A stretch of 64,000 nt of DNA from Eledone cirrhosa (Eukaryota), in assembly GCA_964016885.1 (NCBI GenBank), contig OZ024748.1, positions 59,892,001-59,956,000 on the forward strand, in the 5' to 3' direction. Under the pieces are notes generated by a model that ran no database searches, had not been told where the DNA came from, and saw only the letters and a list, made by a program, of their open reading frames with translations. Positions 6,885 to 49,174 of the stretch are shown piece after piece. The translations under genes and the position numbers were made by a program. Within the stretch, counting starts at the first letter, position 1; every line of letters starts with the position of its first letter.

Positions 6885-7960
6885 CAATAGTAAATATAGA
6901 ACAATGTAAATGCTAAAGACATTTAGTATATTGTTCAAGTATTCAAGACAAACCACACCGCCTGTGTTCGAACTCCCAACCGTGAGATCATGAATCACAC
7001 ATCATAGCCTGTAAGACATTTTAAATAATTTTCTTCTAATTCTTTACATCTGTGACAATTTTATTTCGAATTAGTTTCTTCATTTCATTCTGTGAGTGAG
7101 ATTGTCTTGTCGGTTCTCAATAAAATATCATTATCTAAGACTTTCAATTTTACTTAGCTACTACTTTACTTTACGTATATATAACTTATTCTTCGAAGTT
7201 ATAAATAATTCAGTGAAATTTCCAACAGATTTCCATTTAAGTGCTAATGCCAAATTATCAGGCAAAAATATCATAGCAATATATATTAGATTAGATTCTT
7301 TTAGATTAAACCACACCGAGACATTTTATTTTAGACGAGAGAGCGGGCGAGAGAGAGAACCGGAGAGAGAAAAGCAGAGAGAGAGAGAGAGAGAGAGAGA
7401 GAACCAGAGAGAGAGAGAGAGAGAGAGAGAGAGAGAGAGAGAGAGAGAGAGAGAGAGAGAGAGAGGGAGGGAGGGAGAGAGAGAGAGAAGAGAGAGAGAG
7501 GAATTGCAGATATTACCTTGTTTGGATGGTGGTGTTTCACGGACACAACAGCTATATATAACCTTGTGGTTAAGAAGTTCACTTTGTAACTACATTTCCT
7601 GGTTTGATTCTAGACAATTTTTACGAAACATTTTTTACGAAATTGGCTTCTATCATTACAGTCAAAGAGAGTTGACATCCATCTTGCCTTACCCTGCCAG
7701 CATAATTTGGTATTTTCACATGGAAACTTTGCAGAAGCTTGTCGCATATATATAAATATATATCCGTATGTGGTTGATGGCTGAGAGAAAAGAGTACTCA
7801 ATACCGAATTAAATGAATATGTTCTTGTCTGATTACCCTGCTATTATAAACAGCCGAAACCCCAGTGTAACAGATTCCCCTTTTAGTCTTAATAATATAT
7901 ATATATATATATTATTAAGACTGGGGTCATACTTGTTCCTATATATATGTATATATATAT

Positions 7961-8446
7961 TATAAAATAACACGAGGCTGGACTGGTGTAATTCCTTAAA
8001 AGGTTTATTATACTATGAACATTTCAATGACCGGGTTCAGTATGAATTTGGTGACATCATCAGGTATTCGAAATTTAACAAAGAAATATAATCCATGCGA
8101 CTGAAAAGGCAGAGAGACAAGAAGGGGGCAACACATTTAGCAGTTTCTAGTTCTGTCGGCCGACCCATGGATTATATTCCTTTGTTAAATTTCGAATACC
8201 TGATGATGTCACCAGTTTCATACTGAACCCGGTCATTGAAATGATCATAGTATAATAAACCTTTAAGGAATTACACCAGTCCAGCCTCCTGTTATTTTAT
8301 AATAATTAACTCCGTACTCGCACCACCAACAACACAAACGAAGACGGGTGAGTTGCATTACGTCGAGTGCTCTCCCTAATATTACACCGAGGCTGACCAT
8401 ACGGAATGACCAGTTCTATCCAGTGGTGAACCAACAAACCTAAATG
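7961..8446 (+). mobile_element. Family C fold-back element (Penelope-like end)
   Basis: Inverted arms 7961-8097 and 8166-8302, unpaired tail 8303-8446, TA repeats on both sides. Confidence 0.8.
8196..8253 (+). ncRNA. Type I hammerhead ribozyme motif (family C)
   Basis: atac-CTGATGA-[extended stem II]-GAAA-TGATCA-TA-gtat: stem I ATAC/GTAT, palindromic stem III, AUA site. Confidence 0.7.
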
Positions 8447-8604
8447 TATATATATATATATATATATATATACACGCACACACACACACACACACGCACA
8501 CACACACACACACACACACACACATACACACACACACACACACACACAAACACACACACACACACACACACATATATATATATATATATATATATATATA
8601 TATA

Positions 8605-8718
8605 TGGAAAAGAAATCGAAAATGCTCCTGGAGTCTTTTTAAGAACATTTGTTTATTTCCTTTACCGGTTTCACAGTTCTTATACCGTTTCAAAAGTATT
8701 AGAATTGTGATGGAGAGC
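8605..8718 (-). mobile_element. Family D fragment
   Basis: Similar to 28672-28870. The minus strand carries TTGAAA...GAAACCGGTA. Confidence 0.65.
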
Positions 8719-9784
8719 AGATTTGTTTGCTAGTTTACTGAGTACCAAGGTAAATGTATGTAGATTCCATTGTCCAACGTAGAAATGCAAAGAAACATTT
8801 ATATATAGTTGGACAACACGACTGATAAGATAAATACCGCTACTATATTTACTCTCTGAGTTCGCTCCTCCTGGGCATCGATAGATACAACGCATCGCTT
8901 CGTAGCGTTCGAGTGAATATGATCCAATGTTCAAAATATGAATTGCAATATTTCTTTTGTCAATCCACAATGCTTAATAATATTTACAGTTTTATTATCT
9001 TCCATTAATGCCACTTCATGTATTTTGACCCTTACGTTAACGCCATGTTTCAAAGACATCTCTTATACCATTATAAAAAGGTGGCTTCTAGCAACTTCAT
9101 TTCACTTGCATTCTTTCCTATCAAATTTGATTTCTCACTAAATATTTCACAACAAAAGATATCCACTCTTCTAAGGGTCATTTATTTCTATCTTTAAGGA
9201 TTGAGAAAGAAACACAAAAACAGAAAAAAGGAAAAGCATGCAAGGTTTCACATCCTTTATACTTCTGGCAATTCTATAACCACATTAGAGAGGACAGGAC
9301 AGATAACAGAGGCCCCTTAACATTTGAAATCCACGGCCAAATAATCCTCAATAGATGGAAATATTTGATTTATTTCCCCCCATGTCCTTTATCTGTTAAC
9401 ATTAAAATCTATCGATAAACTCGTGTTTACCGATATCCAATATATTATGAAAATGGTCGTAATTTTTGATGTCAAAATAACCCCCTCCAAACATTATAAT
9501 CGGTTTATATCTCCATTAATGCTTTTACGCCATTGAACTTACGAACGGTCTCTGCACGTTTCAGGTCATAACCGGATTTGAACTCTAGCTTGGCACCTCC
9601 AGTTGTTATTTATTATTGCGAAGCACATTGAAATTGATCAATGAAATTTCTTTCTCTCTGCCTGTCTCTCGGTCTGTCTGTCTGTCTCAATCTCTCACCT
9701 TTATCCCTCTCTCTATATATTCTTTCTCTTTTCGTTTTTCATCCATTCTTATTTTCTTTTGATCTTCCTTTATTTCATTTCATT

Positions 9785-10020
9785 TACCTACCTACCTACC
9801 TACCTACCTACCTACCTACCTACCTACCTACCTACCTACCTACCTACCTACCTACCTACCTACCTACCTACCTACCTACCTACCTACCTACCTACCTACC
9901 TACCTACCTACCTACCTACCTACCTATCTACCTACCTACCTACCTTCCTACCTACTTATCTATCTATCTATCTATCTATCTATCTATCTATCTATCTATC
10001 TATCTATCTATCTATCTATC
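9785..10020. repeat. (TACC)n then (TATC)n microsatellite
   Basis: Direct inspection. Confidence 0.95.
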
Positions 10021-10029
10021 TTTCTGTCT

Positions 10030-46472: not shown

Positions 46473-46731
46473 TGTGCAGTGCCTTTGCTCACTATAAAAG
46501 CTTCACGGCACAGGCATTGCTTTATATCTGGAGATCTCTCTGCACATGTCGTCACATGGTACCATGGGCCCAGCACTATGTGTCAATAATTGTCACAAGT
46601 CTAGTGTTTGTACCAGAGTTTACAAGTTGCTGGCTGGACTAAAAAGTCACACTCGTTCAGCGCATCGGTAGGTGTTCTCCTACATCGATATAAAGTAGTG
46701 GCCGTACTCGAAAACGAGTTGGCAGCCACCA
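46473..46731 (+). mobile_element. Family M, 5'-truncated copy
   Basis: Matches the last 260 bp of 32435-33042. Confidence 0.9.
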
Positions 46732-46868
46732 CGTATGTATGTATACATGTATGGGGTTATGTATGTATATATGTATGTGTGCATGTATGTATGTATGTAT
46801 GTATGTATGTATGTATGTATGTATGTATGTATGTATTATGTATGTATGTATGTATGTATGTATATATG

Positions 46869-47476
46869 TCAGGTTACCAGTTGGTGCTACTGGTAACATG
46901 TATCCCAGTACAACCTGTCTCATGGTAGGGTCGTTGGCGACTGAACTGGCAACCCCACCAAGGTTTCTTGGTGAGGAGGGTGACTTTGGACATCCTGCAG
47001 GACTAAAATCAAAACCTGTCAAAGGGCAAAGGAGCTCTTAAGTGTCAATGGACATCCAAAATCACCGGGAGAGATGACTCCTTAGCCTTTGTCAAGGCAG
47101 AATTCTAGTTGAAGGAAAACTCTGATATAACAACTGCAACCGTGATGGTATCCAATGATGTTGACTTGTTCTTCTTTTTGGTAAATATCATCTTGGTTAA
47201 GAGAGTGGGACTGGCTTTGTGCAGTGCCTTTGCTCACTATAAAAGCTTCACGGCACAGGCATTGCTTTATATCTGGCGATCTCTCTGCACTTGTCGTCAC
47301 ATGCTACCATGGGCCCAGCACTATGTGTCAATAATTTTCACAGGTGTAGTGTTTGTACTAGAGTTTTCAAGTCGCTGGCTGGACTAAAAAGTCACACTCG
47401 TTCAGCGCATCGGTAAGGGTTCTCCTACATGGATATAAAGTAGTGGCCGTACTCGAAAACGAGTTGGCAGCCACCA
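46869..47476 (+). mobile_element. Family M, full length
   Basis: Colinear with 32435-33042; same ends. Confidence 0.9.
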
Positions 47477-48770
47477 TATATGTAGTTATGTGTGTATGCA
47501 TGTGTGTATGTATGTGTGTATGTATGTATGAGTGTGTGTATATATGTATGCATATATATACATATATATTCATATATATACATACACACATATATATATA
47601 TATATATATATATATATATATATATATATATATATATATATATATACATATATATACATATACATATACATATATATATATGTATGCATATATATATATA
47701 TATATATATATATATATATATATATATATATATATATATATATATATACATACATATATATATATATATATATATATATATATATTTACATATATGTGTG
47801 TATGTATGGAAATAACCAGACATAGATATACATTTATGTATATATATAAATATATACATAAATATACACACACACACACTTACACACGCACACACACACA
47901 CACACACACATATATATACACATACATATATATATTTACTTAAATCCATATATATATATATATATATGTATTTGTATATGTATTTATATATATAGATAGG
48001 TGTATATATATATATATATATATATATATATGTATATATATAGATAGGTATATAAATATATGTATATATGTATATATATATATATATATATATATATAAT
48101 ACACACACATACACATATATATATATATATAATACACACACACATATATATATATATATATATGTATATATATATATATATATATATATATATATATATA
48201 TATATATATACACACATATATATATATATATATATATATACATATATATATACATATATATATATATATATATATATATATATATAGATAGGTATATAAA
48301 TATATGTATATATGTATATATATATATATATATATATATATATATATATATATATATATATATATATATATATATATATATATATATATATATATTTATA
48401 TATATAATCTCACTAAATAATAAACAAATTTGTTTCTCACACTAATGTCTAGTTGCTTAAATGTATCCTGTTGTACCGTGAAAGACCTCTCGGTCTCTCG
48501 GTTGGCGGAATCATTGAACATTATAAGGCGGTTCACACACATATGGAAGCGCAGAGGGACAAACACGTTATCTTCATGCTAGTAACTTCCTTGCCTGTCG
48601 TTATTAATGAATGACTGTCATTAGCCGTAGCGACAACCCTTCTCTCACTGTTTACATTTATACATTTCGAACATATGCGCGTACATCCATTCATACATAC
48701 ATACATACATACATACACACACAAACACACACACACACACACACACGCACACACATATATATATATATAT

Positions 48771-48931
48771 ATTTAGGTTTGTTGGTTCACCACTGGATAC
48801 AACTGGTCATGTCTTTGTTATATTTTGAATACCTGATGATATCACCGGATTCATACTGAACACGGTCATTGAAATGATCATAGTATAATAAACCTTTCAA
48901 GGATTTACACAAGTCCACCCTCCTGTTATTA
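48771..48931 (+). mobile_element. Family C element in reciprocal configuration, with hammerhead at 48829-48886
   Basis: Inverted tail end joined to the hammerhead-bearing arm; atac-CTGATGA..GAAA-TGATCA-TA-gtat. Confidence 0.8.
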
Positions 48932-49020
48932 TATATATATATATATACATATATATATATATATATATATATATAGTGAGGTATTTATATATATATATAT
49001 GTATGTATAAATATATATAT

Positions 49021-49174
49021 ATTTAATAGAGAAGTGGCTTCTCCAGGACTAGAACTGTTTCATTCGATGGAAACAGTTCTATTCCCGTGGAAGCAATTTC
49101 TATATTAAATATTTATACCCTGCTATGTATTGAGTACCTTACTTATTGTGGTTACCCCCGATTGCACTCGAGAT
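49021..49174 (+). mobile_element. Diverged fold-back element with tail
   Basis: Imperfect arms 49021-49061 and 49070-49110, then tail TATACCC...GTATTGAGTAC. Confidence 0.65.

Follow-up and report, generated by a model that had tools for sequence, protein, structure and literature searches.

Why do the tails of several retroelement families that look unrelated carry the same short strings? The question is raised by a 64,000-nt stretch of the Eledone cirrhosa genome (assembly GCA_964016885.1, contig OZ024748.1, positions 59,892,001 to 59,956,000; hereafter, the window). A first-pass annotation had noticed TACTCC at the arm/tail boundary and GAGTRCT inside the tails of elements labelled C, E, K, G, and L and of two "solo tails," with GAGTACC in an element at 49114. 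Pairing patterns identify the two strings as complementary strands of a single bulged hairpin, conserved at the ends of Penelope-like elements (PLEs) of the Hydra clade. We think it probable that this hairpin, in the element RNA, is a landing site that sets the start of reverse transcription 6 to 8 nt upstream.

All of the cited strings are present, and the cited elements are built as (TA)n, arm, inverted arm, tail, (TA)n. GAGTRCT lies at 8365+, 18136+, 23474-, 29410-, 45896-, 7793-, and 36563+, and GAGTACC lies at 49132+. The tails of K (23491-) and L (45917-) start with TATACTCCAG, and the boundary strings of C, E, G, and the 49114 element are likewise in place. K and L do have CTGYAGAGTGCTTC in common, as had been claimed; a merged K/L pattern gave 4 genome matches, all of them L. 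The shared motifs are thus real strings but not two independent linear motifs, since they form two sides of one hairpin. ACTC near the boundary pairs with GAGT further 3'; stacked on the C-G pair is an inner stem, whose 3' side is followed by a 2-nt bulge. Other families carry GCTC/GAGC or GTTC/GAAC in place of ACTC/GAGT, which are A-U/G-C swaps in the outer pair.

Palindromes were sampled blind to the motif in the window and in 100 genome stretches, each 10 kb long and evenly spaced. This gave 348 palindromes; the 100 with a TA run next to one arm and a tail 30 to 300 nt long were kept (93 once duplicates were removed). A descriptor (NYTC, inner stem, loop, complementary inner strand, 2-nt bulge on the 3' side, GARN) was fixed before a fresh draw of 60 stretches, which yielded 173 palindromes and 39 elements. 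The pooled sample comprised 132 elements in 55 tail clusters, 13 of which were present in the fresh draw only.

The fixed descriptor matched 6 of the 13 fresh-only clusters (shuffle mean, 0.29; maximum, 3 in 200) and 18 of the 55 in total (shuffle mean, 1.03; maximum, 4), outperforming both literal strings. GAGTRCT is itself enriched in the tails of the genome sample (8/55 clusters; shuffle mean, 0.29), including 3/13 fresh-only clusters, a count reached in 0/200 shuffles. TACTCC near the boundary stood up only in the pooled sample (4/55; shuffle mean, 0.68), its single fresh-only cluster (1/13) being not significant (19/200 shuffles). Within the window, GAGTRCT occurs 17 times against 8.9 expected (0/100 shuffles reach 17), a count inflated by five further E copies, a K duplicate (28416), and two self-complementary sites that score once per strand; the occurrences at 35088 and 62025 fall outside such tails. 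Literal TACTCC is not enriched there (14 found, 22.9 expected).

The geometry is specific. Altered bulges of 0, 1, and 3 nt matched 4, 4, and 3 of the 55 clusters, a bulge on the 5' side matched 7, the reverse complement matched 1, and the arm matched 0. When the outer stem was fixed instead, a 2-nt 3' bulge suited 14 of 56 groups and every other geometry suited at most 3. Left free, the outer pair was paired in 15 of 18 groups, versus 9.9 by permutation (p = 0.0015), and with a looser inner stem in 19 of 27, versus 14.5; pairs further out were at chance level. In an unrestricted scan, the hairpin had a weight of 11.0 in the bin +5 to +9 from the boundary and no more than 2.1 in any other. The group counts for bulge, outer pair, and position retain groups 0, 2a, 2b, and 47, in which the best stem was in the wrong register. 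Among six published consensi from coral, sea cucumber, copepod, and octopus (PMC8557442 supplement), Hydra-2_Amil and Hydra-2_Ajap fit the descriptor by eye (2/6).

On these patterns we hold with high confidence that the bulged fold is real and selected. The hairpin could instead be without function, its similarity a residue of common descent or its pairing due to chance, and the weak folding energies and the placement of all protein-linked families in one clade would suit such an origin. We regard this as very improbable, because the inner stems differ wholly in sequence and still pair, each element has two paralogous hairpins (see below), coral and sea-cucumber elements match, and the test on fresh clusters largely refutes it.

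No ribozyme appeared among the Rfam matches listed (150 of 637), which were microsatellite noise, and the hairpin lies outside the hammerhead core. A twister ribozyme, a rolling-circle nick nonamer, a telomeric repeat, and a selenocysteine insertion sequence (SECIS) were dropped on inspection, since the pairing fits none of them. In 10 of 21 families the stem is followed by RC, and the RNA string AGTRCT can pair with itself; we speculate that these bases may possibly form a sequence-specific contact or a dimer signal.

The copies in the window, where hairpin 1 is the one just past the arm/tail boundary, are listed below with the predicted hammerhead cores beside them.

8309..8368, plus strand: C hairpin 1, ACTC-CGTA, 42-nt loop, TACG, TC bulge, GAGT; the TAACTCC and GAGTGCT noticed earlier are its strands
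8200..8242, plus strand: predicted hammerhead core (CTGATGA...GAAA; pattern match) 5' of the C hairpin
8021-8063, minus strand: predicted hammerhead core (pattern match), mirror copy, family C
18116..18139, plus strand: E hairpin 1, ACTC-TACT, 6-nt loop, AGTA, TT bulge, GAGT; 8 nt past the arm/tail boundary
18347..18370, plus strand: second copy of E hairpin 1, with GAGT changed to GTGT
29132..29155, plus strand: E hairpin 1
13898..13921, minus strand: E hairpin 1
19742..19765, minus strand: E hairpin 1
24615..24638, minus strand: E hairpin 1, duplicate of the 19742 copy in a local segmental duplication
56479..56502, minus strand: E hairpin 1
23477..23497, minus strand: K hairpin 1, ACTC-CAG, 5-nt loop, CTG, CA bulge, GAGT; in the minimum-energy fold
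23563-23600, minus strand: predicted hammerhead core (pattern match), family K
28419..28439, minus strand: duplicated copy of K hairpin 1, absent from the first-pass annotation; predicted hammerhead core at 28505-28542, minus strand
45899..45923, minus strand: L hairpin 1, ACTC-CAGT, 7-nt loop, ACTG, TA bulge, GAGT
29453..29520, minus strand: G hairpin 1, ACTC-CAAG, long loop, CTTG, GAGT; 1-nt bulge here, TT in relatives
49117..49135, plus strand: hairpin 1 of the 49114 family; 5' strand ACCC here, ACTC in other copies
7796..7808, minus strand: solo family remnant, UUCG loop and 3' strand; the direct copy breaks off within the hairpin and is joined to the inverted arm
36554..36566, plus strand: solo family remnant, loop and 3' strand; 5' strand degenerate
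58140..58169, plus strand: near-match in the tail of the 57863 palindrome; outer pair mismatched, GAGC
1085..1134, plus strand: GCTC/GAGC variant with a 2-bp inner stem, from a family tied to a Hydra-type endonuclease in L180
40410-40455, minus strand: second copy of the GCTC/GAGC variant

Several details of the earlier description change with this pairing. The string cited for E, TATTACCC, is the linker before the hairpin, whose real 5' strand is the ACTC at 18116. In G, the GAGTRCT at 29410 lies further 3' than hairpin 1 and is not conserved in relatives; the true partner of ACTC is the GAGT at 29453-56. The solo tails do contain GAGTRCT, but both are damaged copies of one hammerhead-bearing family that has 320 exact pattern matches in the genome, the window copies having lost or damaged the 5' strand. 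The list of tails omitted the palindromes at 37691, 52694, 57863, and 61310, which are without GAGTRCT. Two tandem segments of ~4.7 kb with 97% identity (~19000-23670 and 23880-28620) are separated by a run of 200 N (23674-23873). This duplication, possibly an artefact of assembly, makes K and one E copy occur twice. At 48833-48930, family C has a copy that lacks the tail and ends ~13 nt before the hairpin position.

What are these elements? Their coding neighbours and insertion sites identify them as (TA)n-inserted 3' ends of Penelope-like retroelements, and the linked families as distant relatives in the Hydra clade that share the hairpin by descent, with clade labels taken from protein motifs read by eye rather than from a tree. 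The families had been called unrelated, yet five of them (E, K-like, L, G-like, and 49114) link to Hydra-clade open reading frames (ORFs). The tails of E (L025; L083, L026, and L038 share its 3' untranslated region [UTR]) and L (L016) lie 1.2 to 1.4 kb downstream of an endonuclease ORF, as does that of the K-like copy L079, with short repeats nested between. Most of the 30 copies of the L125 family, which had no Pfam match on L125, have a G-like tail as their terminus or stop just short of one. The G-like ORFs of L281 and L257 encode a reverse transcriptase (RT) followed by a C-terminal GIY-YIG-type endonuclease. By eye, L281, L257, L016, L083, and L180 have a CxCx5C linker and CxxC plus CxH beside conserved E and N, without CCHH; the K-like L079 is too broken for full motif scoring. 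The RWK and DKT motifs were scored in L049 (K-like) and L115 (49114 family), the N termini of E, L, and G-like elements lying outside the sequence sampled. An RWR variant of RWK occurs in the downstream ORFs of both, and DKT occurs in L049, in another frame of the broken copy. The best endonuclease matches among linked families have 33 to 48% identity over 23 to 138 residues.

Hammerhead cores are predicted in C, K, L, and the solo family, and the E copy L038 has a U3-A8-type core by eye. In E (L038, L025, and L026; by eye), the hammerhead seemingly has the U3-A8 variant of the core, its stem II loop being long and its stem III loop palindromic. Insertion at (TA)n is evident in E, where 83 of 86 far ends adjoin a simple repeat. 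The 3' UTRs are long, and the E tandem spacing of ~3.53 to 3.54 kb exceeds the <3 kb that is general, though not diagnostic, for the Hydra clade. The C and solo families have hammerheads and no protein link was found for them, with no Hydra-type endonuclease in L225-L254 for the solo family. The descriptor had no match in clusters 33 and 15, whose tails are tied to other types of endonuclease. We set aside an E-endonuclease link in L035 as a probable chimera. We rejected identity with Naiad, in which the endonuclease is N-terminal and there is no canonical hammerhead; here the endonuclease is C-terminal and hammerheads are present.

Other tails came to notice alongside these. A further PLE family outside the Hydra clade (L011, L097, and L125; window 22375-23250) has a tail of similar geometry, with GTTTC/GAAAC, two inner pairs, and a CA bulge. 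A young family of 784-amino-acid PLEs with a CxxC-type linker (L131-L160), to which the 28764 region of the window looks akin, has two 3' ends ~40 nt apart and a different tail hairpin, GTGT/ACAC. A plain hairpin stands shortly before the far end in several K, L, and G-like tails (window 23405-23460 and 45840-45880; L255).

How is the hairpin placed relative to the element ends? Two sharp end classes bound the tail, and from the near end, where tail-less copies stop, hairpin 1 starts 7 to 8 nt further on. Among ends adjoining a TA run, with positions relative to ACTC, 45/132 in E lie at -8 and 73/132 at +72 (the far end), 20/46 in K-like elements at -7, 9/43 in G-like elements at -7 and 18/43 at +164, 6/22 in L at -7, and 6/27 in the solo family at -8; the E, solo, and G-like loci were partly obtained by family queries and are not random samples, and the K and K-like rows are the same matches and not additive. 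Together with the positional scan, these positions support the suggestion that the tails hold a cis signal whose spacing from the inverted arm's end is fixed.

The far end has a hairpin of its own. Among 238 far ends inspected, 15 run into non-repeat sequence; two (L049 and L094) show a GCTC/GAGC hairpin 6 to 7 nt on. Where E, G-like, and L copies read through, and in single K-like and C copies, this hairpin 2 starts 6 to 8 nt past the far end; it was found in 3 of the 4 families queried genome-wide. The E pattern had 297 matches (control, 0), with the same 6-nt linker and 5' strand in 93 of 100 among the matches listed and several copies spaced 3.54 kb in tandem; all 17 G-like matches fit, as do ~91 of 100 among the listed matches of the 247 for L, both with an 8-nt linker (counts made by eye). 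Hydra-type ORFs lie upstream or downstream of the hairpins. E also occurs in short, retrozyme-like tandems that contain hairpin 2, with units of 299 and 257 bp (G000 C2 ~356.03 Mb; C1 ~27.01 Mb). In the 49114 family, a pair of neighbouring 83-bp tandem units connects the far end back to hairpin 1 (G000 C4 ~370.00 Mb).

We propose that the endonuclease would nick (TA)n on both strands and that the RT, held by the hairpin, would prime from each nick at the UA-rich linker just 5' of the hairpin, probably aided by 2 to 4 bases of TA pairing. A start at hairpin 2 would give the tailed copy, and a start at hairpin 1 the inverted, tail-less copy; with two starts, one per hairpin, the tail would be the interval between hairpins 1 and 2. 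Copying would leave out the hairpin in use, which is 3' of the start, so the template would have to be RNA that reads through a tandem or partial tandem. A bolder version, which we offer tentatively and think less likely to be right than wrong, is that a portable bulged hairpin of ~25 nt acts as a measuring stick: two copies on one read-through RNA, each setting a start 6 to 8 nt upstream, would serve two RT subunits at two nicks and so write the head-to-head insertion and its one-sided tail in a single event. Because the docking hairpin would never be copied, each round would strip one docking site, which would explain why PLEs need tails and partial tandems for mobility. The general idea is partly published. 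In vitro, a Penelope-like RT (Poseidon PAc) has two internal start sites, which delimit the tail, and it extends both strands once they are nicked; the tail of that element has been tied to the two RT start sites and a stem-loop (PMC11167929).

An alternative hypothesis, which we find unlikely, is that the hairpin directs cutting of the RNA 6 to 8 nt upstream, by an element protein or a host nuclease, and that the RT starts at the new 3' end. Cutting would likewise account for the constant spacing and for the two classes of end, and the genomic data look alike for it and for internal initiation. Against it, internal starts occur on uncut RNA in another clade (PMC11167929). The E hammerhead, moreover, is predicted by eye to cut ~20 nt upstream of the boundary, which argues that the ribozyme is not the maker of these ends.

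Which strand carries the signal? Permitting G-U pairs raised the matching clusters from 12 to 18 of 55, permitting A-C pairs brought no gain, and the stem of the solo family is closed by a C-UUCG-G loop. The G-U gain and the UUCG loop point to sense RNA as the acting strand. The signal might act instead as DNA, as a hairpin in single-stranded complementary DNA or as a GIY-YIG endonuclease site that places the second nick or resolves an intermediate. In its favor, most inner pairs are Watson-Crick (11 G-U among 175 pairs), the tail of Drosophila virilis is cited as required for endonuclease recognition (PMC11167929), and the tail has been ascribed to endonuclease-mediated resolution (PMC8557442). 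The wobble pairs, however, suit the sense strand only, and hairpin 2 marks an end while missing from the inserted DNA, which favors action on the template over a nick signal in the insert. We judge a DNA signal to be quite improbable. Of the two roles first suggested for the motif, RT binding or priming is thus the better supported; the second-nick option is disfavored because hairpin 2 lies beyond the far end that it marks.

Slightly less probable still, in our view, is a regulatory role for the hairpins at the junction of pseudo-long terminal repeat and ORF, in transcription, translation, or the folding of the hammerhead. The ends would then merely fall in TA-rich sequence close by that pairs with the (TA)n primer. 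Hairpin 2 does stand shortly before an ORF start in L049, the linkers are TA-rich, and many Hydra hammerheads have an ACTC/GAGT stem III that could swap partners with the hairpin. The arms, however, contain many other TA-rich stretches, yet ends concentrate at -7/-8, and stem III is unlike the tail hairpin in E, L, and Hydra-2_Amil. A stem III swap as the general cause was rejected because the stems do not covary in these three.

Several observations weigh against a general positioning role for the hairpin, which we nevertheless favor. The descriptor fails in 37 of the 55 clusters, including non-Hydra elements, junk palindromes, mutated G copies, one chimeric cluster, and a Hydra-linked family whose inner stem has only 2 bp, and the families are related by descent, so that cluster counts are not independent. 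The Y:R pair alone is not above permutation (14/18 versus 12.4). The hairpin is in the minimum-energy fold for only 1 of 7 relevant stretches (of eight, the L255 stretch was excluded as it did not contain the hairpin) and for only 8 of 21 families, and the ACTC-type hairpins, those of the first-pass annotation, have predicted pair probabilities of 0.00 to 0.51. The 49114 family showed no hairpin 2 (18 mixed matches to a genome pattern; L115), and the pattern for the K-like continuation past the far end matched only itself. The inner stem of hairpin 2, 4 bp in E, is 1 to 2 bp in K-like, C, L, and G-like copies, under the descriptor threshold. Among the published consensi (PMC8557442), Hydra-1_Crog has one mismatch and Hydra-1_Amil one inner pair, by eye, and Hydra-1_Obim and Hydra-1_Ajap end before the hairpin site. 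Finally, PAc starts inside one AC-rich stem-loop, without target homology (PMC11167929), unlike the ends in TA-rich linkers seen here.

A role in positioning RT starts would likely explain the Penelope "tail." Only one PLE has been studied in vitro, and a short, defined RNA element that crosses phyla makes the question of tail formation testable by mutagenesis, given its naturally occurring compensatory changes and its constant spacing from either end. The hairpin is also a marker for annotating Hydra-clade ends, one family having at least 17,675 exact tail matches in this genome. If portable, it could serve as a docking tag for RT-based insertion at TA repeats.

The elements resemble the Hydra clade as described in PMC8557442, in which the origin of the PLE tail and inverted ends is named as an open question. 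Both have the CxCx5C linker, the CxxC and CxH endonuclease, and RW[KR] and DKT motifs, and both have a hammerhead near the 3' end, a (TA)n target, an inverted 5'-truncated copy, and a one-sided tail. They differ in that the available portions of that paper describe no conserved tail hairpin, in that its tails measure 30 to 40 nt versus ~50 to 170 nt here, and in that its elements are <3 kb long versus an E tandem unit of ~3.54 kb. Penelope elements of Adineta vaga (PMC3846280) likewise have head-to-head inverted ends and an optional tail; self-priming on an antisense template is invoked there, and no tail structure is described in the available text. The hairpin is also not mentioned in the available portions of PMC3846280, PMC4209133, and PMC13282606, and literature searches, which did not cover subscription papers, Repbase notes, or the PMC11167929 supplements, found no publication describing it.

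Like PAc (PMC11167929), the families studied here have two end classes that bound the tail, and in both PAc and the scheme proposed above both target strands are nicked and extended and RNA 3' of the start is required. Unlike in PAc, each end here lies 6 to 8 nt 5' of its own bulged C-G hairpin, a fold that appears conserved across families and phyla. The elements and the tail were already known. Small RNA stems position RTs in other systems, including the 3' stem-loops of stringent long interspersed nuclear elements (LINEs), the R2 3' UTR, hepadnavirus epsilon, and telomerase boundary elements. A LINE stem is copied into the insertion, whereas the hairpin described here would sit 3' of the start, be left behind, and occur twice.

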